Assembly: GCA_029259695.1 (NCBI GenBank)
Contig: JAJDEQ010000056.1
Location: forward strand, 30,746 to 94,745
From: Planctomycetota bacterium
GTDB lineage: Bacteria > Planctomycetota > B15-G4
Length of the DNA stretch: 64,000 bases
Direction: 5' to 3'
Part shown: positions 8,497 through 26,710 of the stretch, one piece after another
Numbering within the stretch: position 1 is the first letter of the stretch
Layout of the letters: each line of letters starts with the position of its first letter
Position numbers and translations under genes: made by a program
The notes under the pieces: model-generated
Database searches by the model: none
What the model was told of the DNA's origin: nothing
Seen by the model: the letters and a program-made list of their open reading frames with translations, nothing else

Positions 8497-11328
8497 ATGA
8501 TGATCTCGCCCCGCCCCGCCCGCGCTTGCGTCACGATTCGCCTCGTCGGACTCGCCCTCGCGGCCGCGTGCCTGCTGCCCAGCACGACACACGCGGCGCC
8601 GCAGCTCGAGCCGATCGACATCGGCCGAGACTCGGTCAACCCGGTCGCGGCCCAGACCAAGCTGGAGAACGAGGACCTGGTCTTCGACTTCCGACGCGAC
8701 GGGACGCGCTTCGAACTCGAGTCGATCACGCCCAAGGCCGATCCCGATTCGCCGATCCTCATGGCGACGGGCTCGGGCAGTTGGACGCTGCGCCTGGCCG
8801 CCAAGGGCGTCCAGCCCATGGAGTGGTTCGAGTTCTCCATGGACGGTTCGGTGTGCGACTCGACAGGTTGCGCGAACCCGACATTGGGCAGCCTCGACTC
8901 CCTGTCGCTCGATGCCGTGCGCGTGGTCCAGCCGTCCGCCCGCATCGAAGCCTATTGGTCGGGGCGCATCACGTTCGCCGGCGCATCGGCGGGCTTCCTC
9001 ATCGTCACCGACTGGCGTGTCGCGCCCGGCTACCCCTTCGGTGTCACGCGCCTGTCGTTCCGATTGACTTCGCCCGGCGCGTTGCCGTTCTACGCGACAC
9101 ACGTCACCTACCCCGACATCCGCGTGCAGTCCTTCGACACGGGCAACGACGCGCTCGTGGTGCCGTGGGTCTCGGGCAGCCTGATCACCGAGCCCACGCA
9201 CGTCGATCACCCGTTCCCGACGTGGTTGGATCGCGAGGACAACTATCTGCCGGTCAGCCTCGGCGCCTACTACGACGGCGCCAAGCCCCGCTCGAACTGC
9301 TTCGTCTTCACCGCCGACGTCGGCGACCACTACTGGAAGGACATGATCTTCCGGGTGCAGAACGACTCGACCGCCGGAACTCCCGGGTGGGTCGGATTCG
9401 ACTTCCGGCACGTGCCGGATGACATCTACGACAGCAAGCAGTACACGACGCCCTACGCCGTGCGCCTGGGCGTCATCGAAGGCGACTGGTGGGATGTGGC
9501 CGACGCCTACCGCTTCTTCCTCGACAACGAGGTGTCCTGGTACGACGGCCCCGTGGCGTCGCCCGCCAACCCGATGCTGCCCGGTGTGAAGGACATCGTG
9601 GCCGAGGTCCTGTTCCAGCCCGGCTTCGACGGCGATCACATGGACCTGATCAACCGTCAGATGATGGACATGACGCGCGTGCTCGGCAGCGACGTCAGCA
9701 CGATCTGGTACCAGTGGCACGCGCCGGACACCTTCAGTCACTTCCTGCTGCACGGTTACCTGCCGGCACGTCCGTCGCTGGGGGCGGCTGTGCGCGAAGC
9801 GCAGAAGCAGTTCGATCACCACGTCTCGCTCTACTACAACAGCAGCCAGGGCGCCGACTACACCGCAGCCGAGCCGCCGATCGTCAACCCCACGCCGTTG
9901 CAGCTCGACGTGTTCGACGCGTTCCTCATCGACGAGGACGGGGATCCGATCTTCGGCCCCGAACCCAACGGTCCGCCGCGCATGGGCCTGCTGGACGCCG
10001 GCAACTCGTGGTGGCGTTCCTTCCTTCCGCTGAACCTGCTCGAGATCGCCGAGTTCACGGACATGAACGGCATCTACCTCGACTTCTGGTTGACGGCGCC
10101 GAACTACGGGGACGATGCGAGCAAGCATGCGTTCCCGCCCGGCGGTGGTCGTTACATGTACGACGAGAAGATGGGACAGCTCGCCGACCTGCGCACCGGT
10201 CTCGGCGCGCTCGCTCCGGTGCCGGACGACTTCGTCGTGTCGATGGAGTACGTGGTCGGGCGTTTCAGTGAAGAGGCCGACATCATGCACGTCGACCCGG
10301 CGGGCAATCTCATGTCCGCCAACTACAACCCGGCGCACCCCGACGCCGAGGCGATGTCGAACGCGGTCACGATCCCGTTCTTCCGGGCCATCTACGACAA
10401 CATCAAGATCAGCCGCATCACGACGGCCGTGCCGACGGTCACCGGCCGCCGTGCCTGGTCCGTGGCCAACAACGTGTTCACGTTCGGCAACATCCCGGGG
10501 CTCACGCGGCCGGCGCTGGAGCTGATCCCGATCTTCTCCGACCGCTTCGCCATCGCGCCCTTCTTCGACTTCGCCGGCATCATCAACTCGCTCAACCCGT
10601 TCGACGACGTGGACGACGAGTTCGCCGGCAACTCCCAGGGCGACGTGATCGACCCGGTAGGCACCGGTGCGGGTGACAGCGAGACCGAGGTCCCGCCGAC
10701 CCCGCCGGACGTGCACCTCGGCTTCACGGTGCAGCCCAAGAACATCTTCAACACGCCGTTCTACGAGTACCTGGGCAACATCACCACCGCCCTGCGCGGC
10801 GACCTGCCGACGCTCGGCAACGGCGCGTTCGGCCTGCGCAACTGGCACAACGGGACGATCCGGCGCCTGCCCGCGTACACCATCACCCAGGTCGGCGGAA
10901 CGCCGTTCGACGGGATCCCCGGCGTGGAGATCGAGCCCGATCCGGAGACGCCGTACCTGATGACGCCGGTGTACACGGAGGAGTTCCCGCTGCCGACGCT
11001 GGGCGAGCCCTATCCCAACGCGATCGGGCCGGCACTCGTGCCGGGGATGTTCCAGGCGCCCGAGGACGCGCCGGGCGGCGATGCCAACTCGCTGGCCTTC
11101 GTGGTCACCAACCCGTGGGTCGATCCGACCCAGTCGGGCGTGTTCGAGATCGACTTCAGCATCGATCCGACGCAGTACCCCCGCTGGCACGACGGCCAGA
11201 ACTACACCGTGGTGCGCTACGACGCCGGTGGAGCGGCGCCGCTCTCGCTCGGGGTGCAGACGGGCGTGTTCCAGCACACCGAAGTGGTCACCGCAGGCGA
11301 GATCTCCTGGTTCGTTCTGCGGCAGTGA
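8497..11328 (+). CDS. Secreted 943-aa protein of unrecognised family (possibly glycoside-hydrolase-like)
   Basis: ATG 8497 is followed by signal peptide 'MMISPRPARACVTIRLVGLALAAACLLPSTTHAAPQ'. Non-biased composition across ~940 aa. Segments such as 'NGIYLDFWLTAPNYGDD' and 'IWYQWHAPDTF' are loosely reminiscent of TIM-barrel glycosidases, which is a weak call. Starts 17 nt after the BNR gene. Confidence 0.6.
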   Translation: MMISPRPARACVTIRLVGLALAAACLLPSTTHAAPQLEPIDIGRDSVNPVAAQTKLENEDLVFDFRRDGTRFELESITPKADPDSPILMATGSGSWTLRLAAKGVQPMEWFEFSMDGSVCDSTGCANPTLGSLDSLSLDAVRVVQPSARIEAYWSGRITFAGASAGFLIVTDWRVAPGYPFGVTRLSFRLTSPGALPFYATHVTYPDIRVQSFDTGNDALVVPWVSGSLITEPTHVDHPFPTWLDREDNYLPVSLGAYYDGAKPRSNCFVFTADVGDHYWKDMIFRVQNDSTAGTPGWVGFDFRHVPDDIYDSKQYTTPYAVRLGVIEGDWWDVADAYRFFLDNEVSWYDGPVASPANPMLPGVKDIVAEVLFQPGFDGDHMDLINRQMMDMTRVLGSDVSTIWYQWHAPDTFSHFLLHGYLPARPSLGAAVREAQKQFDHHVSLYYNSSQGADYTAAEPPIVNPTPLQLDVFDAFLIDEDGDPIFGPEPNGPPRMGLLDAGNSWWRSFLPLNLLEIAEFTDMNGIYLDFWLTAPNYGDDASKHAFPPGGGRYMYDEKMGQLADLRTGLGALAPVPDDFVVSMEYVVGRFSEEADIMHVDPAGNLMSANYNPAHPDAEAMSNAVTIPFFRAIYDNIKISRITTAVPTVTGRRAWSVANNVFTFGNIPGLTRPALELIPIFSDRFAIAPFFDFAGIINSLNPFDDVDDEFAGNSQGDVIDPVGTGAGDSETEVPPTPPDVHLGFTVQPKNIFNTPFYEYLGNITTALRGDLPTLGNGAFGLRNWHNGTIRRLPAYTITQVGGTPFDGIPGVEIEPDPETPYLMTPVYTEEFPLPTLGEPYPNAIGPALVPGMFQAPEDAPGGDANSLAFVVTNPWVDPTQSGVFEIDFSIDPTQYPRWHDGQNYTVVRYDAGGAAPLSLGVQTGVFQHTEVVTAGEISWFVLRQ

Positions 11329-11582
11329 GCACCGCCCGAGAGCCGGAGGCGGCCGGCTCGCGGGCCGCTCTCGGCTTCGCCTGGCGGGCGGTCTCCGCTC
11401 GCCGCTCGGTTGCGGCCGCTCGTCCGCTCGGCGGCGAGCGCTCCGACTCGTTTCTCGGCCGGCCCCGCTGCCGGCCCTGAGCCGGCCTCCCAAGTTCCTT
11501 TCAGCCAGTGACTTAGGTTTCCGCCCGGTTGCGCCGAAGGTGGCGGCAAGATCCGGGGTCCGAATGGCCGAAAGGGGTGCTT

Positions 11583-14500
11583 ATGGTTCACGAGAGCAGT
11601 CCGTCTCCTGTCTCCCCGTCCCGTTCCTCCGAGCCGTCTGGCGGCAAGGACGTGAATGCGTGGATGGAGTCTCACGCCCAACGGCGTTCCCTCGACGACC
11701 TCGCCAAGGCCGGCAAGCGGCACGTGCGCGTGGTCTCGAAGGCGAAGATCCTCGAGCTGATCCGCGCCAGTGTGGCCGACGCCGTGGCGCGTCAGTCCTC
11801 GGGTCTGGATGCCGACGAGCGGGCTCGATTGGTCGAGCACGCTCGGCGACGCTTTGGTCGCGTGGCCCGCATGCAGGCCGAGGCGGATGCGGAGATCCGG
11901 CGTCTGAAGGACGCCGTGGCCGAGTACGAAGAGCAGATCGCTCAGTTCGAGGCGAACGAGAGCACGCTGCGCGAGCGCCTCGGGGATCGGGACGACGATG
12001 CTCGGGGTGAGCTCGACGGCATGCGTGAGCGCGCCGACGCGGCCCAGGAACGCATCGGCGAGTTCGAGCAGCGCATCGCCGAACTCATGCAGCAGGTGCG
12101 CCACGCGGAGGGCGTCGAGCGCGAGTTGCAGCAGACCCTCGCGGGCAAGGATGCCGAACTCGACGCAGGTCGTGAGCAGCTCGAGGCCAACCGGCGTGAG
12201 TTGCAGGAGCGCATCGAGGCCATGTCGGCGCGAGACGCCGATGTGGGTGACGACTCCCAGGAGCTGGATGATCTGCGTGTCCGCCTGGAGCAGACCGAGC
12301 GCTCGTTGCAGGAGGCGCAGGCAGAGCTGGGCGCACGCGACGATGCCCTGCGCGGCAAGGACGAGGAACTGCGCGCCATCCACAGCGAGGTGGAGGGCAC
12401 GACGGCCGCGGCACTGGTCGAACTGAAGACCGCGGTCGGGGGCCTGGGTCAGCAGGTGTTCGACGTGACCGCCCTCGACGACATGCTGGACCGTCTGCGT
12501 GGGTGGAGCGAGGAGAACGCCCGCCACGCCGAACTCCGCCTCGAGGAGCGCCTGGCCCAGCTCGCCGAAGCGATCGGTGGCTCGACCGCCGGCTCGATCG
12601 AGAGCGGGGCGGCGTCGCTGGACGCCCTGACCCGCCAGCTGGGCCAGATGGGTGAAGCCGTCGCCAACCTCGGCTCGGCCCCGGACACCGAGGCCCTCAG
12701 TGCGGTGTGGCGCGAGACGTTCGCCCAGGAGCGCCAGGCGGCCAAGGAGCGTGAGGCCGCCACGGCCCGCGCCTTCGCCGAGCAGACCGAGAGCATGAGC
12801 CGCGCGTTCGAAGAGCACCAGGAACGCCTGCGGCAGGAGTGGAACGAGCAGTGGCAGACCCAGTGGGCCGCCCTGCAGGAGCGCACCACGGGCGGCCAGT
12901 CCGAGGTGAACGCGGAGGTGCGCGCGCTCTTCGATGACGTTCGTGCCGAGGTCGAGACGCTGCGCACCCTGTGGGCTTCGCAGTCGACCGACCAGACCTC
13001 CACCGACCAGCTCGACGCCTTCGCGAGCGGCATGCGCGAACAGAGTTCACAGGTCGCGTCGCTGGAGAAGCGCCTGATGAACTGGCTCGGCAGCCGGTTC
13101 GAGGAGTTCGGTGTGGCGTTCGCGGGTGATGCCGAGGCGCGGACCGGCCGGCTCGAGCAGTCGTCCGAGCGCCTGGGCGAAGGCTTGCAGGCCCTGCGCC
13201 AGGACGTCGCCGACCTGCGCTCCGGCGCCGAGGCGCGCGATGAGCAGGCTGCCCAGGACGATTCGCGCAGCCTGCTGAACACGATGCAGGCCACACTCAC
13301 CAAGCTCGAGCAGCGTTCCGACAGCCCCGACACGAGTCTGTCCGAGGCGTTGGAACGCATCCAGACCTCCGTCGCCGAGTGCCGCAGGGCCGTGTCCGAG
13401 AGTCGCGCCCTGATCGAGCAGGATCAGGCGCGTTCCAACGAGAACGATCCGGCCATGCTCTCGTTGCTCGACGATCTGAGCAACGCCCTGAGCACGATGC
13501 AGTCGCGCCACGGCCAGGCAGACGAGGCCCTGACCAACCGGTTCGACGAGTTCGGCAAGGCCCTCGACGGGTTGCAGTCGCGCAACGAAGAGCTGTTGTC
13601 CGACAGGTTCGGCGCGCTCGACGAAGCCTTGCGTGGGCTGCAGGTGGAGCGCGGCCATGTCGAGGAATCGCTGAGCGCCAGGCTCGGTGAGCTCGGCCAG
13701 GCGCTGAGCGCGTTGCAGTCGAGCTCCGGCGGTGCCGAGGAGTCCCTGAACGCGAAGCTCGGCGAGATCAGCCAGGCGCTGAGCGCGTTGCAGTCGAGCT
13801 CCGGCAGCACCGACGACTCCCTGAACGCGAACTTCGGTCGGCTCGAACAGGCCTTCCGCGAGTTGCAGTCGCAGCAGGGGGCGGTGGACGAGACACTGAG
13901 CACGAGATTCGAGGAGCTGCTCGAGGCCTTCAACGCACTCCAGTCGACCAGTGGAACCGCAGGGCAGGCCCTGTCCGCCAAGCTCGACACGCTCACCGAG
14001 CGCAGCGGCGCCACCGACGAGTCGGTCACCCGGACGCTCTCCGAACTGCGCGCGACCCTCGATGCATGGAGCGCCCAGGCTGGCGCTCCCGACCCGTCGC
14101 TCGTCTCGGCGCTCGAGGAACTGCGCGGCATGCTCGCGTCCCGGCCCGCCGACCCCGAGGCCTCGTTCGGCGCGATGCTCGAGGAGATCAAGGTGACGCT
14201 GGGCTCGGTTGCGAGTCAACTCGAACAGCCCTCGCGCAGCGACCCGTCGCTGATCAAGGCCATGGGCGAACTGCGTGCCGCGATCGGTGCGCTGGAAGAG
14301 CAGGGCGGTCAGACCGATCCTGCACTCGCACAGTTGCAGCACGAGGTGCAGGCCGCGTTTGCGCGTCTCGAACAGCGCCCGGCGGGGCCCGACGAAGCGG
14401 CGTGGGGACAGCTCTCGGCCTCGGTCACCAAGCTGCTCGAGCGCCCCTCGGCCTCACCCGACCAACTGACCCAGGTGCTCGAAGAACTCCGCGGGCGCTT

Positions 14501-17396
14501 CGATCAGTGGACGCCGCAGGCCGACCCGCGTGTGCTCGAGGCGCTCGATGGCCTCGGTACTCGCGTCGACGAATGGACACGGCAGGACGCTCAGGGCGAC
14601 GACGCGACGGCAGGTGCTCTCGAGGCCCTGCGCGAGCGGCTCACCGGCTGGGAAGGCCGCTGGGACGATGCTCATCCGGCCGTGCTCTCGGCGTTGTCCG
14701 AACTCCGCGAGGCGATCTCCGCCAAGCGTCAGCCCGACCCGACGCTCGTCGCCGCGCTCGACGACGTACGCGGCACGCTCGCCAATTGGGAAGCCCGTTG
14801 GGATGAGCGCGACCCTCAGATCAGCTCGGCGCTCCAGGCGATCCGGGGCAGCCTGACCGATTGGGAATCCCGCTGGACGGCCTCCGACGGTTCGGTCGTG
14901 TCGGCGCTCGAAGCCGTGACCGGGTCGGTCGAGTCGCTGGCCGCCCGACCCGGCCCGGAAGCCGCGCTCGGGATCCTGAACGATCGCTTCGAGTCGCTGC
15001 GCACGTCGGTGGACTCGCTGGCCGCCCAGCCCGGAGCAGAGGCCGTGTTCGATGGCCTTGAGCAGCGCTTCGAGTCGCTGCGCGCATCGGTGGACGCGCT
15101 GGCTGCCCAGCCCGGCGCCGCCGCGTTGTTCGACGACTTCAACCAACGCTTCGAGTCGCTGCGCACGTCGGTGGACTCGCTGGCCGCCCAGCCCGGCGCC
15201 GCCGCGTTGTTCGACGACTTCAACCAGCGCTTCGAGTCACTGCGCGCGTCGATGGACTCGCTGGCCGCCCAGCCCGGAGCGGAGGCCGTGTTCGATGGCC
15301 TCGAGCAGCGCTTCGAGTCGCTGCGCGCGTCGGTCGACAGCCTGAACGCCCAGCCGGGTGCCGATGCCGTGATCAGCGAACTGGGCGGTCGGCTCGACTC
15401 CCTGTGTTCCGCGGTGGACACGCTGTCCACCAAGCCCGGCGCGGAAGCCGTGTTCGGTGACCTCGAGGCACGCTTCGATTCGCTGCGGAACTCCTTGGCG
15501 GAACTGGCGTCGCAGCCCGGCGCCGACGCACTCGTCGGTGCATTGAGTGAGCGCTTCGATGCGCTCGACTCCACGCTGAGTGCCCTGGCCTCCAAGCCCG
15601 GGGCCGACGCCGTGTTCAGCGACTTCAACGAACGCTTCGAATCGCTGCGCTCGACGCTGGACGGCCTGGCCTCCAGGCCCGGTGCCGAGGCGTTGTCCGG
15701 CGAGTTGGAACAACGCTTCGAGTCGCTGCGCGAGAACCTCGCCGCCCTGCGCGCCGAGGCCGGAGCACCTCAGGCCGAGACGCGCAATGCACTGGCTGAG
15801 CTGCGTGACGCGGTCACGGAGCTCGCGACCCGTCCGGAGGTCAGCGGGACCGAGCCGTTGCAGGGGCAGATGGAGACGCTGGAAGCCGCACTGTCGGGCA
15901 TCCAGGAACGCACCACGGACCAGATCGACTGGTCGCGTCGCACCCTCGGCGGCCTGTTCGAGGAGCTGAAGAACGTGCGCTCCATGGTGGAGAACCCCTC
16001 GGTGCAACCGGACCCGTCCACGCACAGGGCCCTGCGGGACATCCAGGCCACGCTGGCCGCGCTCGAGGAGCGTCAGCCGTCCGATCCCGACGTGTCGATG
16101 CACACGGCGCTGCGGGACATCCAGATGACGCTGGCCAACCTGGAACAGCGTCAGCCGTCCGATCCCGACGCGGCGATGCACGCCGCCCTGCGGGACATCC
16201 AGACCACCCTGGCGCACCTCGAGCAGCGCGAACCGCCCAGCGCCAAGCCCGACCCGTCGCTGCACGCCGCCCTGCGCGACATGCAGATGACGCTGGCCAA
16301 CCTGGAGCAGCGGGAAGCGCCGGCGCCCCAGCCGGACCCGTCGATGCACGCTGCCTTGCGGGACATCCAGATGACGCTGGCCACCCTGGAACAGCGCGAC
16401 CCGACGCAGACCGATGCCTCGCTGAACACGGCGCTGCAGGACATCCAGGCCACCCTGGCCAACCTGGAACAGCGCGAGCCGGCCCAGCCCGATGCCTCGC
16501 TGCACGCCGCCCTGCGCGACATGCAGATGACGCTGGCCAACCTCGAGCAGCGCGAACCGGCCGGGCCCGACGCCTCGGTGCACGCGGCCCTGCGCGACAT
16601 GCAGATGACGCTGGCCAATCTCGAACAGCGCGCACCGGCCGGCCCCGACGCCTCGGTGCACGCGGCCCTGCGCGACATGCAGATGACGCTGGCCAACCTC
16701 GAGCAGCGCGCACAGGCCCAGCCCGACGCCTCGCTGAACGCTGCGTTGCAGAGCATCCAGACGCAGCTTGCGCAACTCGAGCAGCGCTCCGGCTCGCTCG
16801 ACGCGAAGTCGCTGGAGAAGCTGCTGAAGAAGCACGGCAACCGGAGCTCGCTGCAGAGCGACGCCGCGGCCATCGGCCCGCTGCAGGAGATGGTGCAGGA
16901 GAAGCTCGACGCCATGGCGTCGGTCGTCGAGGCCACCCGCGCCGACGACTCGGCGCGTCAGGCCTTCGCCGCCATCGACCGTCTCGACGGTGAGTTGCAG
17001 GCGGTGCGCTCCACGCTCGACGCGATCGCCCAGCGCACCACGGCGGCGCCCGACGAAGGGTCGACGCGCAACGCCCTCGATTCGATCCAGAGCTCGCTCG
17101 AAGCGCTGACCGGACGGAACACGCAGGACACGACCCGGGCGGCTTTCGACGAACTGCGCCACTCGCTCGACACCAAGCTGGCCGAGATGGCGTCGTCTCT
17201 GCGCAGCGGGCCGGCCACCGCCCCGCAGGCGCGCGCGCCCGTGAGGCGGGCCGAGCCGCTGGCGGACATGGGCGGCAACTATCGCGAGATCCGCGTCGAG
17301 GAGCGGCAGAGCGCCGCGGAACTGGACGAGGGCATCGCCCTGCTGCGGTCGGTCGGTGCGGGACAGCTCGTCCCGGCCTGGTCGACGGGCGCGTGA
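11583..17396 (+). CDS. Giant (1937 aa) D/E-rich coiled-coil / tandem-repeat protein
   Basis: ATG 11583 with AAGGGG 7 nt upstream. The N-terminal ~450 aa have heptad-like, E/R/Q/L/A-rich coiled-coil character. The rest is built from 25-, 27- and 26-28-aa tandem repeats (see repeat features). No enzymatic motifs and no signal peptide seen. The stop TGA 17394-17396 overlaps an in-frame GTG (17393) of the next ORF. Confidence 0.85.
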   Translation: MVHESSPSPVSPSRSSEPSGGKDVNAWMESHAQRRSLDDLAKAGKRHVRVVSKAKILELIRASVADAVARQSSGLDADERARLVEHARRRFGRVARMQAEADAEIRRLKDAVAEYEEQIAQFEANESTLRERLGDRDDDARGELDGMRERADAAQERIGEFEQRIAELMQQVRHAEGVERELQQTLAGKDAELDAGREQLEANRRELQERIEAMSARDADVGDDSQELDDLRVRLEQTERSLQEAQAELGARDDALRGKDEELRAIHSEVEGTTAAALVELKTAVGGLGQQVFDVTALDDMLDRLRGWSEENARHAELRLEERLAQLAEAIGGSTAGSIESGAASLDALTRQLGQMGEAVANLGSAPDTEALSAVWRETFAQERQAAKEREAATARAFAEQTESMSRAFEEHQERLRQEWNEQWQTQWAALQERTTGGQSEVNAEVRALFDDVRAEVETLRTLWASQSTDQTSTDQLDAFASGMREQSSQVASLEKRLMNWLGSRFEEFGVAFAGDAEARTGRLEQSSERLGEGLQALRQDVADLRSGAEARDEQAAQDDSRSLLNTMQATLTKLEQRSDSPDTSLSEALERIQTSVAECRRAVSESRALIEQDQARSNENDPAMLSLLDDLSNALSTMQSRHGQADEALTNRFDEFGKALDGLQSRNEELLSDRFGALDEALRGLQVERGHVEESLSARLGELGQALSALQSSSGGAEESLNAKLGEISQALSALQSSSGSTDDSLNANFGRLEQAFRELQSQQGAVDETLSTRFEELLEAFNALQSTSGTAGQALSAKLDTLTERSGATDESVTRTLSELRATLDAWSAQAGAPDPSLVSALEELRGMLASRPADPEASFGAMLEEIKVTLGSVASQLEQPSRSDPSLIKAMGELRAAIGALEEQGGQTDPALAQLQHEVQAAFARLEQRPAGPDEAAWGQLSASVTKLLERPSASPDQLTQVLEELRGRFDQWTPQADPRVLEALDGLGTRVDEWTRQDAQGDDATAGALEALRERLTGWEGRWDDAHPAVLSALSELREAISAKRQPDPTLVAALDDVRGTLANWEARWDERDPQISSALQAIRGSLTDWESRWTASDGSVVSALEAVTGSVESLAARPGPEAALGILNDRFESLRTSVDSLAAQPGAEAVFDGLEQRFESLRASVDALAAQPGAAALFDDFNQRFESLRTSVDSLAAQPGAAALFDDFNQRFESLRASMDSLAAQPGAEAVFDGLEQRFESLRASVDSLNAQPGADAVISELGGRLDSLCSAVDTLSTKPGAEAVFGDLEARFDSLRNSLAELASQPGADALVGALSERFDALDSTLSALASKPGADAVFSDFNERFESLRSTLDGLASRPGAEALSGELEQRFESLRENLAALRAEAGAPQAETRNALAELRDAVTELATRPEVSGTEPLQGQMETLEAALSGIQERTTDQIDWSRRTLGGLFEELKNVRSMVENPSVQPDPSTHRALRDIQATLAALEERQPSDPDVSMHTALRDIQMTLANLEQRQPSDPDAAMHAALRDIQTTLAHLEQREPPSAKPDPSLHAALRDMQMTLANLEQREAPAPQPDPSMHAALRDIQMTLATLEQRDPTQTDASLNTALQDIQATLANLEQREPAQPDASLHAALRDMQMTLANLEQREPAGPDASVHAALRDMQMTLANLEQRAPAGPDASVHAALRDMQMTLANLEQRAQAQPDASLNAALQSIQTQLAQLEQRSGSLDAKSLEKLLKKHGNRSSLQSDAAAIGPLQEMVQEKLDAMASVVEATRADDSARQAFAAIDRLDGELQAVRSTLDAIAQRTTAAPDEGSTRNALDSIQSSLEALTGRNTQDTTRAAFDELRHSLDTKLAEMASSLRSGPATAPQARAPVRRAEPLADMGGNYREIRVEERQSAAELDEGIALLRSVGAGQLVPAWSTGA
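13668..13967 (+). repeat. Four tandem 75-bp (25-aa) coding repeats inside the giant gene
   Basis: Units 'SLSARLGELGQALSALQSSSGGAEE', 'SLNAKLGEISQALSALQSSSGSTDD', 'SLNANFGRLEQAFRELQSQQGAVDE', 'TLSTRFEELLEAFNALQSTSGTAGQ'. The 30-mer gcgctgagcgcgttgcagtcgagctccggc recurs exactly 75 bp apart (13701 and 13776). Looser related units extend on both sides (~13500-14930). Confidence 0.85.
14940..15749 (+). repeat. Ten tandem 81-bp (27-aa) coding repeats inside the giant gene
   Basis: Units of the form 'AAQPGAEAVFDGLEQRFESLRASVDSL'. The central copies ('AAQPGAAALFDDFNQRFESLR(T/A)S(V/M)DSL') are nearly identical at DNA level by eye. Confidence 0.9.
16005..16787 (+). repeat. Ten tandem 72-84-bp (24-28-aa) coding repeats inside the giant gene
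   Basis: Units of the form 'EPA(G/Q)PDAS(L/V)HAALRDMQMTLANLEQR'. Copies 8 and 9 are almost identical over 78 bp (16569 versus 16647). Confidence 0.9.
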
Positions 17397-17422
17397 CGAG
17401 GACGGACCCAGGAGATCCCACG

Positions 17423-18544
17423 ATGAGCGCTGCCATGGACAACACGATTTCTTCCGGTCCCGGCCCGTCCTCGGGCGGAGCCGCCACGATCGGCCGCGAC
17501 GCGCCCGAGACCTACGGCAACCCCGACAACTGGGGCCGCACGGAGGTCGCCACGCGACTCGGCCGCGGGATCGACTTCGGGTCGACCCACGTGCTCGCGG
17601 TCGAGCGCAACGAGGACGGTCACTGCGTGTGCCGTACCGACCGCAACGCCTTCCTCAAGCTGCCGCCGGATGTCTCCATGAAGCCGGCCATGCTGACTCA
17701 GCTCGACGTCCCCTATGCCGAGTGGAAGGATCGCCTGTGGGTCCTGGGCGACGCGTCCTACAACCTGGCCAACCTGTACGTCGGCAACACGGTGCAGCGG
17801 CCGACGGCCAACGGCTTCCTCGACCCGCACGATCGCGACGGTCACACGATGACGCGTTGCCTGATCGAACGGCTCGTGCCCGCTCCCCGCGCGCACGGCG
17901 AGCCCGTGTGCTTCTCGATGCCGTCGACGCCCATCGACCAACGCGTCGATCGCGCTGCGCACCGCGCCATCCTGGCCGACATCTTCTACCGGCTCGGCTA
18001 CAGCGCCTACTCGCTCGACGAGGGCCACGCCGTGGTCTACAGCGAGTTCATGGGGCAGGGCTTCACGGGCATCGGCATCAGCTGCGGTGGCGGCGTGTCC
18101 GACGTGTGCGTCTCCTGGCAGGCACGCCCGGTGACGTCCCATTCGGTGGCTCGCGGCGGCGACTGGATCGACGGTCGCATCGCCGAAGTCCTGGGGATCG
18201 ATCGCGAGCGCGCGCGCGCGCTCAAGCAGGGTGACGTCGACCTGCGCGCCCCCCGCAACCGCGAGGAAGTGGCCATCGCGCTCTGCTACCGCATGTACGT
18301 CGGCTACCTGCTGTCGACCCTGCGCAAGAGCTTCGACGGCGCCGAGAACCTGCCGCGCTTCGACGCGCCGCTGGAGATCGCCGTGGCCGGCGGGGCCAGT
18401 CTGGCCCGGGGCTTCGTGGACCTGATGACCGAGGAGCTGCGCAAGTTCGAGTTCCCGGTGCCCATCGGCAACGTGCGCCTGGCGAGTGATCCGCTCTCGG
18501 CCGTCGCGCGCGGCTGCTTGATGGCGGCTTCGCTGGCCGACTGA
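17423..18544 (+). CDS. Divergent actin-like ATPase (ASKHA fold; ParM/MreB/MamK-like), 373 aa
   Basis: Phosphate-1 'GIDFGSTHV', phosphate-2 'GIGISCGGGVSDV', adenosine motif 'IAVAGGASLARGF', C-terminal 'DPLSAVARGCLMAA'. ATG 17423 has GGAG 9 nt upstream. An in-frame GTG at 17393 overlaps the upstream stop (GTGA). Confidence 0.8.
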   Translation: MSAAMDNTISSGPGPSSGGAATIGRDAPETYGNPDNWGRTEVATRLGRGIDFGSTHVLAVERNEDGHCVCRTDRNAFLKLPPDVSMKPAMLTQLDVPYAEWKDRLWVLGDASYNLANLYVGNTVQRPTANGFLDPHDRDGHTMTRCLIERLVPAPRAHGEPVCFSMPSTPIDQRVDRAAHRAILADIFYRLGYSAYSLDEGHAVVYSEFMGQGFTGIGISCGGGVSDVCVSWQARPVTSHSVARGGDWIDGRIAEVLGIDRERARALKQGDVDLRAPRNREEVAIALCYRMYVGYLLSTLRKSFDGAENLPRFDAPLEIAVAGGASLARGFVDLMTEELRKFEFPVPIGNVRLASDPLSAVARGCLMAASLAD

Positions 18545-18587
18545 GTTCGCGCCGCCGGGCGCACACGGCGCCCGCGATGACGTCGCT

Positions 18588-18607
18588 GTCCGTCGGTCAC
18601 GACGGAC
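18588..18607 (+). other. Perfect 8-bp GC-rich hairpin (gtccgtcg-gtca-cgacggac) between the actin-like gene and the next gene
   Basis: Read directly: 18588-18595 pairs with 18600-18607 around a 4-nt loop. A second 7-bp stem (cgggcgc/gcgcccg) lies at 18556-18574. No T-tract follows, so function is unknown (terminator, attenuator or processing site). Confidence 0.35.
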
Positions 18608-18632
18608 CCGCGTCACAGTCCGTAGACTGTGC

Positions 18633-21248
18633 ATGCGTCGTGGCCATTCGGTCCGCGGAGGGTGCGGCGCGCGGGAGTCGCCGAGGTTGGGCCACGGGAC
18701 GACGCGAAGCCGGGCTTGGGCAGTGGTCGCGTGGGCTGTCGTGGTCGCCTCTCTGGGTGTCTGGTGGTGGCTCGCTCGCGCGCCCGACGCGTCGGTGCGG
18801 TCGCCGTCGGCGCGAGGCGTGCTCGACGGTCGGAAGCGGAGCGCCCCGCAGGTCACGCCGGACGCTGTCGGGTCGCGTCTCGAGGAGCTGTTCAGCGCGC
18901 CGCCGCAGGTCGAGCCGCTGCCGGGTCCCGTTGCGGGGCGGGTCACGACGCGCTTCGTGCAGCGCGATGTGGCCGCTCCGCTGCAGGCCTTCGAACGCAG
19001 CGTGTCCCTCGCCCCCGACGGACGCAGCGTGGTCGCGCAGGTGGTCGACGAGAACGGTCTGCCCGTGCCCGGCGCACGGGTCGTGCTGTACCGCGACATC
19101 TGGGGCCACCACGGGGGGCACGACATCGCGCTGCTCGGCCGGTCGCGCACCGACGGCACGGGCTGGTTCCGGATCCTGGCGACCCGCGGCCGGGTCGACT
19201 TCGACCTGAGCGCGGCCTGGCGGCTCTCGGTGCGCGCGCCCGGGCACGCCCCGTTCCTCGGCCGCGTCGTCGTCGTGGGCGCCGCCGACCGCATCGTGCT
19301 CGACTCGCAGACGGTGTACGGCAAGCTGCGCTTCGACGACGGCACGCCCGTCTCCGGCGCGGCGTTGCGCTTCGCCCACCGTGATTTCGAGGCCACGGGC
19401 CCAGCCGGGGAGCCCGATCGCGCGCTGGTGGAGTCGCAATGGGAACTCGGCATGAGCGCAGAGGATGGGAGCTTCGCGCTGCAGGTGCCGGCGGGCATGG
19501 ATCCGTTGCCCCTGGCGATCGAGCACGAACTCCACGAGAGCACCCGGCTGATCCCGGCCGCCGCCTGGACCGAACACGGCAGCGTGATGCTCGTGCTGCA
19601 GCGAACCGGCAGCTTGACGCTGAGCCTCCGTGACGGGTTCGACGCCTGGCGCGCGCGGGGAGCCGTGCCCTACGTCGTGCTGGACCCGTTGGACGAGCAG
19701 GCCGACGGCAGCTTCGCGCCGCGCCCGGACCCGGACCTGGGCGAACTCTCGTGGCTCGGCGCGGGTGGTGGCAGCGGCTGGTTCCGCGCGGGAGTTCGTG
19801 CTCCGGACGGCGTGGCGCACTTCCCGCGGCTCGACGAGCAGCGAGTGCGCGTGCGCCTCGTGTGTCCCTGGGGCGGAGACGACATCATCTTGTTCGACGA
19901 GGTGCGGATCGAGCCGAAGGGGACGTCGCTGTCCGCCGCGCTCCCGCCGCCGCCGGTCTTCGAGATCGGTGACGAGTGGTCCCTACCCGTGCGGGTGGTG
20001 AACGGCTCGGGTGCCGCGCTCGACAGCGAGGCCTGGAGCAAGCTGTGGCGCACGGCGCTGGTGGTGACCGACGCCGAGGGTGAGCGCGACGAGTATCAAC
20101 TGCCGGGCGATGGAAGCGGGCGCACGCTCGAGTTGGACCTCCTGCCCCCGGTGAGCGTCGCGCTGGAGGGCTTCGCGAGCCTGGCGCGCGTCGACGACCT
20201 GAGCCCGGGCGACACGGCCGTCCTGATCTGGGACGACGAACGCCGCCAGCACGGGGGGGCGCAGGTCCGGCTCGACCTGGACGAGTTCGAGTGGCCGGGC
20301 CACGAACGTGTCCTGTTCTCCCTGCGCCGTGGTGCCCGGGGGGCCTGGACCCGTGTGCCCCCGGTGGTGGAGGGGCTGCCGCCCGGATCGTGGGAGTACC
20401 GCTTCTTGGGTCCGGGGCTGCGCCCGGAGCGTGGGACCTTCGAACTCGAGCCGGGCGACCGGCACGTGATCCCGGTGGAACTCGCGCCGTCGGGGATCGA
20501 TGGCGCGGGCGAGCATGACCCCGAGTTGCAGACGGGACGCGTACGCCTGGTGGGCAGCCCCGATCCCTGGGTCGACGTGCGGACGGTGCGCTTCGTGCCG
20601 GTCTCGGGCGGCGAGGCGCTCGAGGCCGCTCCCCGCAAGGGTGCATTCCGGGCGCGTCTGCCGCCTGGTCGCTACCGCGTCGAGGTGGTGCTGGAGCGAA
20701 CCGTGGCGCCCGAGGTCGCGCACGCCGACAACCACCTCATTGCGCGGGACGAAGGCTGGGCGTTGCCCGTCGACATCGAGCCGTGGGACACCGGGCGCGT
20801 GCTCGACGTCCCCGCGGACACCGACGGGCCGATCGCGTTGGACGTGGACGTGTCGGGGTTGAGTCGCGTCTGGGTCGCTGTACGCATCGGCGAGCATGAG
20901 GCCGCGCTCGACCCTTCGGGCGGGGCCGTGGCGGGACTGCCCCAGGACCTCGCCGAGGAGCCGCTGCGGGTGCGTTTCGCCCATCGCGGACAGGGAGCGA
21001 GCGCTGGCTCCGGCGACGTCGAGCTCTCGGTGTGGCTCCACGATTGGGACACCAAGGCGGCCTCGTTCGTGCTGGCGCCGCGCGCGTGGGTCTGCAGCGT
21101 GAGCCTGGGTGACGATTCGGCCCCGACCCTGGCTCACGTGATCCAACTGCCCGTCGACGGGAACTCCGACGGCAACGTTCAAGGGGATGGCGGCGCCGGA
21201 GACCTCGAACTGACCTTCCACTTCGAGCGGCCCGCCGGGGATCGCTGA
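18633..21248 (+). CDS. N-terminally membrane-anchored 871-aa protein with carboxypeptidase-regulatory-like beta-sandwich domains
   Basis: R-rich N-terminus, then TM helix 'AWAVVAWAVVVASLGVWWWLA'. CarboxypepD_reg-like segments 'VVDENGLPVPGARVVLY...RTDGTGWFRI' and 'GKLRFDDGTPVSGAALRF'. Lies 88 nt downstream of the actin-like gene on the same strand. Confidence 0.6.
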   Translation: MRRGHSVRGGCGARESPRLGHGTTRSRAWAVVAWAVVVASLGVWWWLARAPDASVRSPSARGVLDGRKRSAPQVTPDAVGSRLEELFSAPPQVEPLPGPVAGRVTTRFVQRDVAAPLQAFERSVSLAPDGRSVVAQVVDENGLPVPGARVVLYRDIWGHHGGHDIALLGRSRTDGTGWFRILATRGRVDFDLSAAWRLSVRAPGHAPFLGRVVVVGAADRIVLDSQTVYGKLRFDDGTPVSGAALRFAHRDFEATGPAGEPDRALVESQWELGMSAEDGSFALQVPAGMDPLPLAIEHELHESTRLIPAAAWTEHGSVMLVLQRTGSLTLSLRDGFDAWRARGAVPYVVLDPLDEQADGSFAPRPDPDLGELSWLGAGGGSGWFRAGVRAPDGVAHFPRLDEQRVRVRLVCPWGGDDIILFDEVRIEPKGTSLSAALPPPPVFEIGDEWSLPVRVVNGSGAALDSEAWSKLWRTALVVTDAEGERDEYQLPGDGSGRTLELDLLPPVSVALEGFASLARVDDLSPGDTAVLIWDDERRQHGGAQVRLDLDEFEWPGHERVLFSLRRGARGAWTRVPPVVEGLPPGSWEYRFLGPGLRPERGTFELEPGDRHVIPVELAPSGIDGAGEHDPELQTGRVRLVGSPDPWVDVRTVRFVPVSGGEALEAAPRKGAFRARLPPGRYRVEVVLERTVAPEVAHADNHLIARDEGWALPVDIEPWDTGRVLDVPADTDGPIALDVDVSGLSRVWVAVRIGEHEAALDPSGGAVAGLPQDLAEEPLRVRFAHRGQGASAGSGDVELSVWLHDWDTKAASFVLAPRAWVCSVSLGDDSAPTLAHVIQLPVDGNSDGNVQGDGGAGDLELTFHFERPAGDR

Positions 21249-22921: not shown

Positions 22922-25900
22922 TCACGGCGCCTGCTCGACGTTGAAGCCGATCAGCTCGAACGGCTGGCTGATCGAGTCGGTCGCGAGCACGCGGTCGATC
23001 AGGCGCTGGCTCAGGCCGTCACCGAAGTAGGTGTCGAAGTCCAGCGTGTAGCCCGTGAAGCGCTCGGGCTCGACGCAGAGCTCGTACTCGAGACCCTCGG
23101 CGAACATGGGCACCGCCGTGGCGGGCAGGCTGGTCGTCGTCGTGTCGGCCTCGACGTAGACGAACCACTGCACGAAGTCGAAGCCCAGGCCCGTGCCGTC
23201 CAGGTCCTCGACGACGAAGCACTCGATGCCGTTGCCACCCGGCGTGAAGCCCGAGTCGAAGGTCACCTCGAGCATCTCGGCCTCGGCCAGCGACACGAAC
23301 TCCTGGTCCGTCGGCGCCGTGATCGTGGGGATCGTCGGGATCAGGAAGTCGATTGCCGCCGGCGTCGAACCGAAGAACTCACCCAGCTCGTAGCCGGCGT
23401 CCTCCTCCTCACACAACAGCAGACCGATGCGCCTGCCGTTGAACGCCGTGTCGGTGGCGTCGGGCAGCATGAGCTGGGCCGGCAGCGGACTGTCGTTCTC
23501 GAAGAAGAAGAAGCCGATGAAGCCCAGCTCCTCGGAGGTCGTGCTGTCCATGATGCACAGGTCCATGTACCGCTCGCCCTGGTTGGCCTCGAGGTTGGTG
23601 TAGGTGAGGTCCACCGGCTGGTCGAACTCGAACGAGTCGTCGCCGTCGAAGTCCATGTTCACCACGAGCGTCTGGGCCGGGTTGGCCGGGCCCATGCCGG
23701 TGGTCAGGATGCCGGTGAAGTTGCTGATCGTCGTGACCCCGTCGGGGATCGTGCGGTGCAGCGTGGTCCCGTGCAGGGTGGCACCGGAGGGGATGGCCAT
23801 CGTGTAGAAGCCGCCCCCGTCGACCAGCGCGAACCCGTTGAACTCCGAACCGTTGATGTCGAAGCCGAACACGTTGAGCACGACCTCTTCGCCGATGCCG
23901 ACGATCGGCATGTTGGCGATCGTGCCCTCGAGCGTGGCGTCGAGGGTGGCACCGAGTTCCGACTCGAACTCGATCGGGATGCTGATCACGCCATCCTGCG
24001 GGCTCACGCCCACGATCGTGGCGGCCGAACGCACGGCTTCCGGACCGGGGATGACCGTGTCGAACTGGGCCGTCACGGTGTACGGACCGTCCACGCTGTT
24101 GAAGCTGGCCTCGCCCTGGGCGTTGGTCGTGGCGATCACACCGCCCGCCGACGCCGGATCGGTGCCGATCAGCAGCACCTGGGCGCCACTGGCGGGAACC
24201 AGCGGGGTCCAGGTGTAGTCGTCGTCGGTGAACACCTTGACGGTGATGTCCTCGCCACCTTCACCCACGCAACGCTGCAGGTTGATCGTGGTGATCCGAT
24301 TGGGCTCGATGGAGAAGCCCACGACGGTGGCCTCCTCGGCGCCGGCGAAGGTGAAGGCCGCGGTGTAGTTGCCGGGGCTGAAGCCGGTGGAGAAGAAGCT
24401 GCCGTTGGTGTCGGAGGTGATGCTGCTCTGGTCCGGGCCCTCGATCGTCACGGTACCCGGGGCGCCGGCACCGTTGTCGGTGACACGGCCGGCCAGGTCG
24501 CCGGTGGTGGGGATCACGATCATCGTCTCACCGACGTCGGTCGTGCCGCCGGCCACCACGCTGCCGGGGGCGACGGACACGCCCGCCCGCACCGCGCCGT
24601 AGGCCACGGGCGTGATGCAGTCGATGTCGATCGCGCTGGGCGGAGCGTTGCACGCGGGGAGCGTGAGCGCGTCGTAACCGGGCACCGACGGGATCGAGTA
24701 CATGCCGTTCTCGTCGGTCAGGGCCACGTTGCCGTAGCTCGTGGTGATCGACACGCCGGGGATCGGCGTGCCGTCGCCGTCGACGACGGTGCCGGTGAGC
24801 GTCGTGGCGCAGGTGGCATCCACGGTGACCGCGGGAGCGTGCCAGCCGCCCTCGGTGATCACGCCGTCGGCCTCGATCTGCGTCAGACCGCCGCCGAGAT
24901 CCACGACGATGCCCTGGTTGCCGGTCTCGTCCGAACGGTTGACCCAGTCACCGACGTCGTGGTCGAACGACCAGACGTCGACCATGGTGCCGATGGGGAA
25001 GTCGCGCAGGTTGGGCAGCACGATGTCGATGCCCGTGCCGCCACCGGCGTCGAAGGCCGAGTTGGTCGGGTTGATCGAGACGAACGACGAGGGGTCCAGC
25101 GTGCCCGGCAGGGGCATGGGGATCTCGTTGGCCGGCACCGGGGTCACGTTGATGTCCACCGCGCCCACGGCGGCGGCTCCATCGATGGTGATGGTCGTGC
25201 CGATGGGGGCCTCGAGCTGGATGTTCGGGTCGTTGCCCGTGGCCATCAGCTCCTCGGTGGTGGTGCCCGCGCCGTCGACGGCCACGTTGTCGAGGGCGGC
25301 GTCGGCGTTGTTGAGGTCGGGCAGCGTGATCGACTGGGGCATGATCGTCGCACCGGTGGCCGCGATGTCCGCTTCCACGTCGAGTGTCTTGTACACGCCT
25401 GCGCCGAGGGCGGCGGTGCCGTCGATGCGCACGTCCACGTCGCCGACCGGCGGGTCGAAGATGACGAAGTTGCCGTTGGCGTCGGTGGTGGCCGAGGGAC
25501 CGTTTTCACCGGCGGTGACCAGCACGCCGGCCAGTCCGGCGCCGGTGTCCGAGGCCAGGATCGAGCCGGACAGCGAACGGGCCGCCGACTCACCGGTGAC
25601 GATCTCGGGCTCGCGGAACAGGCCCTTCTTGAACTTCTCGCGCTTGAGCTTGGCCGTGATGCGGATGGCGCCGTCGGCGCCGTCGTTGTCGGTGGCCAGG
25701 GTGTAGGTGCCCAGCGTGTCGAGCGGCACCTGCTTGAGCACGTAGCCGGTCTTCTTCTGGGTCGAGAGGTCGGTCAGGTCCACCGGGTCGTCGGACGCGT
25801 TGGGGTCGTCCAGGGTGGGCTCGCTCACCGTCGCCTCGGACTTCTTGTCGGGCTTCACGCTGGCGTTGAGCAGCAGGCCCGGGCGGGCGTCGAAGGTCAC

Positions 25901-26362
25901 CTCGAGCGTGGCCGCCGCGGCGGTCTCCTCGCTCACCAGGATCTTGGTGACCTCCTTGCCGAGCTTCTCCTTGGTGCGCACCTTGTAGTCACCGATCGTG
26001 TCGCCGCTGCCGGAGATGCGGATCTCGTAGGGACCCGTGGTCGGCAGCAGCAGGCTCTTCACGGCGGACTTCTTCTTGCCCGAAGCCTCCGTGATCAGCG
26101 ACGTGTCGCCGAGGATGTCGAAGACCTCGATCTGCGGCAGGATCTCCTGCTTCTTGCCGGCGGCCACCGTCACGGTGAGCAAGGTTCCGGCGACGGCATC
26201 GAAGCGCAGGATGTCGACGTCGGGGAAGGCACCACTGTCGTCCACGGTGCCTTCGAAGCGATCACCGAGGCGGATGTCGGCGTCGACCACCTGGGCCGGC
26301 GCGTTGGAGACGAGGAGGGCAAGGCAGGTGAACAGACTGAGCACTGCGTGGGTGCTGCGCAT
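22922..26362 (-). CDS. Secreted 1146-aa protein with pre-peptidase-C-terminal-like and carboxypeptidase-regulatory-like domains
   Basis: ATG at 26362 gives signal peptide 'MRSTHAVLSLFTCLALLVSNAPAQ'. PPC-like 'DVDILRFDAVAGTLLTVTV...YEIRISG'. CarboxypepD_reg-like 'GVLVTAGENGPSATTDANGNFVIFDPPVGDVDVRIDG' and 'TGTVVDGDGTPIPGVSITT...TDENGMYSI'. The 111 codons upstream in the track ORF (to 26695) cover the 13-bp repeat region and look non-coding. Confidence 0.75.
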   Translation of the reverse strand: MRSTHAVLSLFTCLALLVSNAPAQVVDADIRLGDRFEGTVDDSGAFPDVDILRFDAVAGTLLTVTVAAGKKQEILPQIEVFDILGDTSLITEASGKKKSAVKSLLLPTTGPYEIRISGSGDTIGDYKVRTKEKLGKEVTKILVSEETAAAATLEVTFDARPGLLLNASVKPDKKSEATVSEPTLDDPNASDDPVDLTDLSTQKKTGYVLKQVPLDTLGTYTLATDNDGADGAIRITAKLKREKFKKGLFREPEIVTGESAARSLSGSILASDTGAGLAGVLVTAGENGPSATTDANGNFVIFDPPVGDVDVRIDGTAALGAGVYKTLDVEADIAATGATIMPQSITLPDLNNADAALDNVAVDGAGTTTEELMATGNDPNIQLEAPIGTTITIDGAAAVGAVDINVTPVPANEIPMPLPGTLDPSSFVSINPTNSAFDAGGGTGIDIVLPNLRDFPIGTMVDVWSFDHDVGDWVNRSDETGNQGIVVDLGGGLTQIEADGVITEGGWHAPAVTVDATCATTLTGTVVDGDGTPIPGVSITTSYGNVALTDENGMYSIPSVPGYDALTLPACNAPPSAIDIDCITPVAYGAVRAGVSVAPGSVVAGGTTDVGETMIVIPTTGDLAGRVTDNGAGAPGTVTIEGPDQSSITSDTNGSFFSTGFSPGNYTAAFTFAGAEEATVVGFSIEPNRITTINLQRCVGEGGEDITVKVFTDDDYTWTPLVPASGAQVLLIGTDPASAGGVIATTNAQGEASFNSVDGPYTVTAQFDTVIPGPEAVRSAATIVGVSPQDGVISIPIEFESELGATLDATLEGTIANMPIVGIGEEVVLNVFGFDINGSEFNGFALVDGGGFYTMAIPSGATLHGTTLHRTIPDGVTTISNFTGILTTGMGPANPAQTLVVNMDFDGDDSFEFDQPVDLTYTNLEANQGERYMDLCIMDSTTSEELGFIGFFFFENDSPLPAQLMLPDATDTAFNGRRIGLLLCEEEDAGYELGEFFGSTPAAIDFLIPTIPTITAPTDQEFVSLAEAEMLEVTFDSGFTPGGNGIECFVVEDLDGTGLGFDFVQWFVYVEADTTTTSLPATAVPMFAEGLEYELCVEPERFTGYTLDFDTYFGDGLSQRLIDRVLATDSISQPFELIGFNVEQAP

Positions 26363-26642
26363 GGGAACGCTTCTCTCTTCCAGGGACGAAGGGGCCGTGT
26401 CCGCGCGTCGGAGGGGCAATCGGTGGGGACGTCGCGCGAGCCTCGCGATGCCAGAGGAGGCCGAGGCAGAATCTGTCTGCTTTCGCCCGCTCTCTGCCGC
26501 ATCGAAGCACGCCTTCATCGACAGCTGGCAGCGGGCGCTGTAGCTCGCCGCGCCGTCGATCGCGGGCAGGGAACGCGTCTTCGCATCCCACATCGAACGA
26601 TGTCGATATAGCGCGTCGGGTGTCGACGAGTGCACGTCGCTC

Positions 26643-26710
26643 GGGGGGTGTCGCGCGGGGGTGTCGCGCGGGGGTGTCGCACGGGGGTGTCGCACGGGGG
26701 GCGTCGCGCG
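26643..26710. repeat. Intergenic 13-bp tandem repeat, 5 copies, consensus GGGGGTGTCGC(G/A)C
   Basis: Read directly: copies at 26644-26656, 26657-26669, 26670-26682, 26683-26695 and 26696-26708 (last copy degenerate, GGGGGGCGTCGCG). Lies 17-84 nt downstream of the kinase stop (26727) and ~280-350 nt upstream of the secreted-protein start (26362), both on the - strand. Confidence 0.9.

Follow-up and report, generated by a model that had tools for sequence, protein, structure and literature searches.

A giant repeat-expanded coiled-coil protein encoded beside a volactin-family actin in a genome of the Planctomycetota

The locus described here lies on a contig of a metagenome-assembled genome (MAG) of a Planctomycetota bacterium, and the window, meaning the whole stretch of 64,000 nucleotides that was analysed, has a G+C content of about 70%. 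Three open reading frames (ORFs), read in an earlier note as the parts of a new cytoskeletal system, are indeed present one after the other on its forward strand and show G+C values at third codon positions (GC3) of 0.88-0.91, which is coding-like for a window of this composition. The first encodes a giant coiled-coil and repeat protein, the second an actin-like ATPase and the third a membrane protein of 871 aa; the coordinates of these genes and of their parts are collected in Table 1. The junction between the giant gene and the actin gene is operon-like, with a short gap, a ribosome-binding site within it and no predicted terminator-like site. The actin frame is open from 17393, its most likely start being the ATG at 17423. 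For the giant gene, a TTG at 11529 offers an alternative start, and the Shine-Dalgarno-like AAAGGGG stands 5 nt ahead of the ATG at 11583. No sigma-70 consensus was found in the upstream intergenic region (11329..11582).

The actin-like protein belongs to a family that is already known. It matches the Pfam model PF25216, called "Volactin", with 229.9 bits for a cut-off of 35 (E 7e-68) and over profile positions 3-321 of 321, whereas the models of other bacterial actins stay below their cut-offs, as with MreB_Mbl (18.7 bits vs 27), FtsA (23.4 vs 31.8), the NCBIfam MreB model (13.1 vs 293) and the NCBIfam MamK model NF040964 (16.5 vs 400). The protein had been rightly set apart from MreB and FtsA in the earlier note, but the new actin family that was also envisaged there gives way to the full-length Volactin match. 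A database search returned more than 1300 homologues, the best of them 45-50% identical and nearly all named ones coming from Planctomycetota MAGs. PF25216 is the precomputed Pfam domain on every listed homologue, and some planctomycetal ones carry the NCBI name 'disk-shape morphogenesis protein volactin'. This type of actin is widespread in the phylum, a single scan having matched about 540 genomes at species level.

The actin fold (ASKHA superfamily) and the intact nucleotide-binding motifs that had been recognized by eye were confirmed by alignment, by structure prediction and by structural search. An alignment of 22 family members contains 63 invariant columns, all kept by the window actin, and D51, G53, G216-G224 and G323-G324 are invariant throughout; the phosphate-1 (GIDFGST), phosphate-2 (GISCGGG) and adenosine (AVAGGAS) motifs stand on invariant columns. 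The AlphaFold2 (AF2) model reaches a predicted local distance difference test (pLDDT) of 86.3 and a predicted template modelling score (pTM) of 0.84, the first ~45 aa being modelled as a disordered extension rich in G, S and P. In a Foldseek search of the PDB, the nearest structures to this model are those of MreB (E 2e-16, TM-score 0.60-0.74), followed by MamK, eukaryotic actin and BeeR. The MreB, MamK and actin matches have E values from 1e-16 to 1e-12, and EutJ comes only at rank 37. No volactin structure was found in the PDB by sequence, the best sequence matches there being MreB and MamK (E ~1e-6). A grouping with sugar kinases, EutJ/Hsp70 chaperones or PilM, named beforehand as the outcome to watch for, did not occur in the Foldseek search, and the window protein is a cytoskeletal-type actin of the volactin family, not a kinase, an Hsp70, an EutJ or a PilM. 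Its phosphate-2 motif (aa 216-224) reads G-I-S-C-G-G-G and includes a serine, S220, that is invariant in the volactin family. In MreB, ParM, FtsA and actin, an Asp occupies the equivalent position (D-x-G-G-G/T). S220 may be a family signature bearing on nucleotide hydrolysis.

Volactin itself (VolA, HVO_2015) is an actin homologue of Haloferax volcanii whose description dates from 2024. Its filaments are dynamic and meet the membrane at their tips, and the protein promotes the passage of this archaeon from rods to disks (PMC10869688). The gene beside it, HVO_2016, encodes a CdpA-like protein with four transmembrane (TM) segments, suggested to be a cytoskeleton-associated anchor (PMC12126565), while a small zinc-finger protein is encoded on the other flank. 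The window actin resembles HVO_2015 in its full-length PF25216 match and in an MreB-like actin fold that falls outside the MreB, MamK and FtsA models. It differs in its host, a Planctomycetota bacterium instead of a haloarchaeon, and in its surroundings, as no upstream coiled-coil partner is reported in Haloferax, where the neighbour is the four-TM CdpA-like protein. A literature search found neither polymerisation or function data on any bacterial member of the family nor a paper on volactin-family proteins or on the partner in Planctomycetota.

The proposed link between the giant protein and the actin holds well beyond this genome. The sample comprises 80 volactin-like loci from GTDB species-representative genomes, almost all of Planctomycetota and including Phycisphaerae and Brocadiaceae/Kuenenia, in which partners were sought with an iterative hidden Markov model (HMM) and with frame-aware and six-frame HMM searches. 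By tblastn, the giant protein has a single match site in 30 of the 80 loci (E down to 2e-17), where its N-terminal 100-300 residues align with a same-strand ORF ending just ahead of the actin gene. The iterative HMM, applied in six frames, finds the N-terminal domain of the partner (N-domain) directly upstream of the volactin-like gene and on the same strand in at least 74 loci. The six others consist of one with the C-terminal motif only (L022), four cut by a contig end and an unclear one from Omnitrophica. In five further contigs with independent gene calls, a gene for a protein of 519-850 aa without any Pfam match lies directly upstream of the volactin gene and carries the N-domain at residues ~4-93 (E ~1e-28). 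One partner-volactin pair in the databases bears the consecutive locus tags RL885_28820 and RL885_28825. The giant protein scores E 2.3e-65 for its first domain against the iterative N-domain HMM, a model built partly from the giant protein.

The partners are constituted of an N-terminal head of ~90 aa (consensus ...ALSArSrTaTLDELrseGrkrVRlIRaehvaqmI.eAV..Aie.SGl...e...LveKSR.EF...) and, after it, a coiled coil whose length varies. Most of them end in a conserved C-terminal motif with a basic leucine-rich helix, ...ESNmdni.VKqk..GGIAANLARLKKLKGG, which also appears in the alignment as ...ESNldnl.V....GGIAANLARLKKLKGG and as ...ESN....V....GIaanLaRLKkL..., and which a motif HMM recognizes with 52-66 bits in five relatives. 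This family is covered by no model in Pfam or NCBIfam, and its members are labelled 'hypothetical protein' in databases. An exhaustive profile search with the N-domain gave 341 cluster representatives among 1.84 billion proteins; among the best 150 of these 341 matches, the domain is N-terminal in almost all, and the shortest and longest proteins have 50 and 824 aa. The same profile, run with a word prefilter against a database of 5.8 billion clusters, returned 16 short fragments. Syntenic partners are 282 aa long in the median and at most 709 aa, compared with 1923 aa from the domain start in the giant protein which, as far as sequence comparison tells, is the largest member found of an unannotated partner family.

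A small head and a coiled-coil tail encoded beside an actin recall the adaptor-actin pairs of type II partition systems, ParM-ParR, AlfA-AlfB and Alp7A-Alp7R, in which adjacent genes likewise specify an actin-like ATPase and a small-headed adaptor. On this model the basic N-domain would be a DNA-binding head like those of ParR, AlfB and KfrA, and the actin would move chromosomal or plasmid DNA. The head indeed holds conserved basic residues (GK-R/K-x-VR-V/L), and one member gave very weak matches to RHH_6 (E 0.016) and KfrA_N (E 0.031), but these are sub-threshold and concern one of 26 members. Pfam searched at E up to 1 with the 26 N-domains returned scattered sub-threshold matches only, and no supported ribbon-helix-helix or helix-turn-helix fold emerged for the N-domain from the Pfam and PDB searches. 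Moreover, the stretch upstream of the giant gene (11250-11700) shows GC-rich inverted repeats but no iteron, parC-like or centromere-like array. Unlike the type II pairs, the genes considered here are chromosomal and not borne by a plasmid or other mobile element, with related loci on large contigs of up to 7.19 Mb and housekeeping and signalling genes as neighbours in the window, are conserved across the phylum and have the adaptor gene first, which is not the order of parMR and alfAB. The link of Haloferax volactin, for its part, is with cell shape rather than with the partitioning of DNA. A DNA segregation system is thus a very improbable reading of the locus.

The giant protein is rich in A (15.4%), L (11.9%), E (10.0%), S (8.9%), R (8.8%), D (7.4%) and Q (7.1%) and is acidic, with 337 D+E vs 199 K+R. 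It contains no hydrophobic or TM segment (maximum 19-residue Kyte-Doolittle value, KD19, 1.05) and its matches among the curated families of Pfam and NCBIfam amount to coiled-coil noise. The coiled-coil N-terminal third announced in the earlier note was borne out by a lag-7 periodicity above all shuffles, and AF2 models a continuous helix at aa 77-149 (pLDDT >90). The count of at least 30 tandem repeats of 24-28 aa proved, if anything, conservative, as about 40 were found, in three blocks of different period. A repeat unit associates a P/G-rich linker, P/G/S-rich in the 25-aa class, with an amphipathic helix of ~18-20 aa, and the 25-, 26- and 27-aa repeats have a common core pattern, P-[DG]-x-x-hydrophobic...L-R. 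At the DNA level, TRF reports a 75-bp period at 13661-13871, inside the 25-aa region, an 81-bp period in 10.0 copies (73% matches) for the 27-aa repeats, which a repeat HMM spaces at exactly 27 aa, and a 78-bp period in 9.6 copies (79% matches) for the 26-aa repeats, also supported by the repeat HMM.

Several similarities of the giant protein were considered and set aside. The Pfam Baculo_PEP_C match (44 bits, just over its cut-off) and the sub-threshold NCBIfam matches to ASRP, SMC and Rad50 were attributed to helical-repeat or coiled-coil composition and not to homology. A role in defence was likewise dropped, PADLOC having given coiled-coil noise alone (LmuB, ZorA and JetC stalks). By eye, the C-terminal motif of the family seems to persist in the giant protein, but this impression was rejected by the motif HMM, which scores it at -3.6, the level of shuffled windows. 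The corresponding C-terminal segment has a net charge of -2 for a family median of +4.

Table 1. Genes, sites and protein regions of the locus (positions in the window; autocorrelation values are given with the maximum over shuffled sequences where available)
Feature	Position	Strand	Description
Intergenic region, likely operon promoter region	11329..11582	+	254 nt, 5' of the giant gene; Shine-Dalgarno-like AAAGGGG at 11571-11577
Giant partner protein	11583..17396	+	1937 aa from ATG; member of an unannotated coiled-coil family
Conserved N-terminal domain	11646..11912	+	aa ~22-110; ...RRSLDDLAKAGKRHVRVVSKAKILELIRASVADAV...; tblastn, iterative HMM, alignment
Heptad coiled-coil region	11940..13442	+	aa ~120-620; lag-7 autocorrelation 0.05 vs shuffle maximum -0.21
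~19 degenerate 25-aa repeats	13440..14912	+	aa ~620-1110; lag-25 autocorrelation 0.97 vs shuffle maximum -0.32
10 tandem 27-aa repeats	14949..15749	+	aa 1123-1389; consensus PGAEAVFDGLEQRFESLRASVDSLAAQ; lag-27 autocorrelation 2.84
10 tandem 26-aa repeats	16008..16796	+	aa 1476-1738; consensus PDASLHAALRDMQMTLANLEQREPAG; lag-26 autocorrelation 2.58
C-terminal region	16797..17393	+	aa 1739-1937; rich in helix-favouring residues; position of the C-terminal motif of relatives
AGGAGA ribosome-binding site	17410..17415	+	7 nt before the actin ATG, within the 26-nt gap after the giant stop
Volactin-family actin-like ATPase	17423..18544	+	373 aa; PF25216 match
Orphan membrane protein	18633..21248	+	871 aa; not shown as a module member

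The expansion of the partner is not confined to this window. A partner of 850 aa (L081:3346-5898, + strand) adjoins the actin homologue P0003, which is 50% identical to the window actin and thereby among the closest. It carries about seven tandem 25-aa repeats (PGVAPDEFARSVAALRDEIAANAPR...) together with an intact N-domain and an intact C-terminal motif. By blastp, its 25-aa repeat region matches that of the giant protein (E 1e-7). Rather than a chimera, the window copy is therefore the far end of a trend that exists already, and the L081 partner resembles an intermediate on the way to it.

The duplication of the module in some genomes was also observed. Six MAGs each contain two partner-volactin modules (L002/L073, L004/L016, L006/L021, L010/L011, L007/L013 and L017/L019). 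In OFTM272, PLA2, MAG.302 and SMAG_U1411, the two copies fall in two sister clades of the actin tree that differ in partner length (~450-800 aa vs ~320-400 aa); a single clade holds the two copies of Dive100, and likewise those of Phycisphaeraceae ab2f. The window actin branches outside both partner-length clades, on a long branch. Downstream of the volactin-like gene, 27 of the 80 loci have a convergent gene, 26-1634 bp away, for a protein of ~1000 aa with Germane (GerMN), Golvesin_C and Amidase_3 domains (L023, L028, L031, L033, L035, L037-L042, L048-L050, L054-L056, L059, L062, L064, L065, L070-L072, L074, L076 and L077), for example L038:11107-14088 on the minus strand. Amidase_3 is an N-acetylmuramoyl-L-alanine amidase domain. 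The convergent gene hints at a link of the module to peptidoglycan remodelling; no counterpart of it was found in the window.

The repeats of the giant protein invite a comparison with nebulin, a protein likewise giant and built of short helical repeats in tandem, which is functionally tied to actin, the tie being a genetic one in the present case. Some 40 repeats would then lie along the side of a volactin-like filament and would stabilise it or set its length at ~200 nm. The regular periods of 25, 26 and 27 aa with a common core, the genetic coupling of the repeat-bearing protein to an actin and the recurrence of the same repeat type in the L081 relative all accord with such a ruler. One unit, made of a helix of ~18-20 aa and a linker of 6-8 aa, would span ~5 nm, roughly one protofilament subunit. 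In MreB, ParM and actin, the subunit rise is ~4.9-5.5 nm. Most family members, however, are repeat-free and reach only ~280 aa, so that side-binding cannot be the core function of the family; the 3-4 spacing of hydrophobic residues fits coiled-coil self-association equally well. The nebulin repeats are of 35 aa instead of 25-27 aa, and a ruler of this kind is unlikely.

Self-association leads to another possibility, in which the giant protein would itself assemble into an intermediate filament (IF)-like scaffold of the crescentin, FilP or Scy type, merely positioned or regulated by the actin. Its ~500 aa of heptad periodicity and predicted helix, a likeness that it does have with these three proteins, its sub-threshold resemblance to the coiled coils of SMC, ASRP and Rad50 and its acidic, repeat-rich composition go in this direction. 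Nevertheless, what the family conserves is the globular N-domain, the rod varying from ~100 to ~1800 aa; the coiled coil of the short members is too small for an IF-like polymer, and the proline/glycine breaks every 25-27 aa oppose a long continuous rod. No sequence relationship joins the giant protein to crescentin, FilP, Scy or nebulin, from which it also differs by its conserved globular N-domain and by the length of most partners, ~280 aa. A self-assembling scaffold is rather unlikely.

An actin-like filament and an acidic tandem-repeat partner encoded nearby are also found in the MamK-MamJ pair, and the analogy drawn in the earlier note holds for this logic alone. The window actin is far below the MamK cut-off, the partner is unrelated in sequence to MamJ, and magnetosome genes are missing from the neighbours.

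The third gene had been presumed to complete the system as an envelope anchor. Its 871-aa product has the R-rich N-terminus and the single TM helix that had been described (hydrophobic segment at aa 30-48, KD19 1.95), but of the several carboxypeptidase-regulatory-like domains proposed for it only one is significant (CarboxypepD_reg, aa 133-218). A three-component system, in which this protein would anchor the actin and the giant adaptor to the envelope in this lineage, can draw on the same-strand position, on a distance of 88 nt from the actin stop in which no terminator is predicted, which would make co-transcription possible, and on the combination of a cytoplasmic R-rich tail with one TM segment. 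The neighbour of Haloferax volactin is likewise a membrane protein, and a new anchor could compensate for the C-terminal motif lost by the giant partner. Against this, the protein has no homologue anywhere, whether in the 80 loci (tblastn), in all 85 related loci or in 5.8 billion protein clusters, where it retrieves only itself, although its GC3 of 0.88 is coding-like. The genes downstream of the actin vary between genomes in the five further contigs, no Shine-Dalgarno-like site precedes its ATG, and the adjacency may be due to chance, CarboxypepD_reg proteins being common in the window. A second one is encoded a few kb away (22922-26695). Of the three genes whose co-occurrence had been expected in other genomes, two are conserved together, and the third is absent from every related locus. 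The three-gene system and the anchor role therefore lack comparative support, the 871-aa protein appearing as a lineage-specific orphan neighbour and not as a conserved module component; a three-component system is quite unlikely.

The giant gene and the actin gene, in turn, probably constitute an operon that specifies a cytoskeletal module of Planctomycetota with two components, an actin and an adaptor. In such a module, the volactin-family actin presumably polymerises into filaments, and the conserved ~90-aa head of the partner would engage either the actin or a common cellular target. The coiled coil would act as a dimerising stalk that sets a distance and, in most relatives, the basic amphipathic C-terminal motif would be the distal attachment end, perhaps to the membrane. 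In this genome, the stalk has grown from ~150 to ~1800 aa (~12-fold) by gaining ~500 aa of heptad coiled coil and ~40 helical repeats of 25-27 aa punctuated by proline and glycine, and the usual C-terminal motif has diverged past detection. As a flexible and segmented connection of great length, the giant protein would then tether volactin-like filaments to their cargo or hold the two apart, and the module may be linked to cell shape or division.

Several points weigh against this picture of a tether. The volactin assignment comes from a Pfam model named after HVO_2015 and not from an alignment with HVO_2015 itself, and a crude neighbour-joining tree gives the window actin a long branch. Direct binding of the partner to the actin is a presumption. 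The AF2 model of the N-domain is helical but of low to moderate confidence (pLDDT 55-84), and the domain has no relatives in the PDB, by fold or by sequence, nor in Pfam. The partner is not a universal companion of volactins, since Haloferax volactin has a different neighbour. Attachment of the C-terminal motif to a membrane is weakly suggested by its net charge of +4 and its leucine spacing; its hydrophobic moment is modest, in the low range of two MinD targeting peptides and well below an FtsA peptide. If this motif is indeed the attachment end, the giant copy, in which it is undetectable, may work differently or be degenerating. The repeat copy numbers, finally, derive from a MAG assembly and are possibly affected by mis-assembly.

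A broader version of this scheme would see the partner-volactin pair as a phylum-wide system for FtsZ-independent morphogenesis or division, the partner tethering filaments to the envelope and the window copy serving as a nebulin-like ruler. In this case, ~40 units of ~5 nm would measure or stabilise filaments of ~200 nm and would represent the first bacterial actin 'ruler'; in a large clade the operon stands tail-to-tail with the gene of the ~1000-aa GerMN/Golvesin/Amidase_3 peptidoglycan hydrolase. So extended a scheme is improbable.

The neighbours of the locus in the window are housekeeping and signalling genes. As had been said of the surroundings of the locus, the scanned neighbours include no ParR/parC-like partition genes, no magnetosome genes and no cell-wall synthesis genes. 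A second actin-like gene lies at 42293-43336 on the minus strand and encodes 347 aa, with 385.4 bits against the NCBIfam MamK model (cut-off 400) and 196.6 against BeeR. Its product resembles the MamK-like 'saltatorellin' of Saltatorellota, for whose strains a preprint reports only MreB and this protein; the published primers for saltatorellin match nowhere in the window. At least two distinct actin-like proteins are therefore encoded within 25 kb of this genome. Four Ser/Thr protein kinase genes are present at 3772-6216 (-), 26727-29525 (-), 34152-35963 (+) and 36025-38817 (-), three of the kinases having TPR regions and one being fused to a caspase (Peptidase_C14) domain. The window also includes an extracytoplasmic function (ECF) sigma factor (794-1762), large FG-GAP repeat proteins (2186-3751 and 29756-34138) and, at 49115-52759 on the minus strand, a 1214-aa protein, unrelated to the actin-partner pair, that has the AAA_27 and AAA_23 domains of an SMC/RecF-like ATPase head and a probable long coiled coil.

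Planctomycetota lack FtsZ and many of them also lack MreB (PMC12673574). How their cells are shaped and how they divide is an open question on which the module may bear. What is new is the partner family, undescribed so far, and its extreme repeat-expanded form, the actin family being already known. Volactin has been characterised only in an archaeon, and its counterparts in bacteria, encoded beside another partner, widen the biology of the family. The pair offers experimenters a defined target of two genes in a phylum of which some members are genetically tractable, and the partners constitute a natural length series, from ~200 to 1937 aa, with which the role of stalk length can be addressed. 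Judged from their sequences, this actin and its coiled-coil partner point to an unstudied two-protein cytoskeletal module in bacteria devoid of FtsZ.

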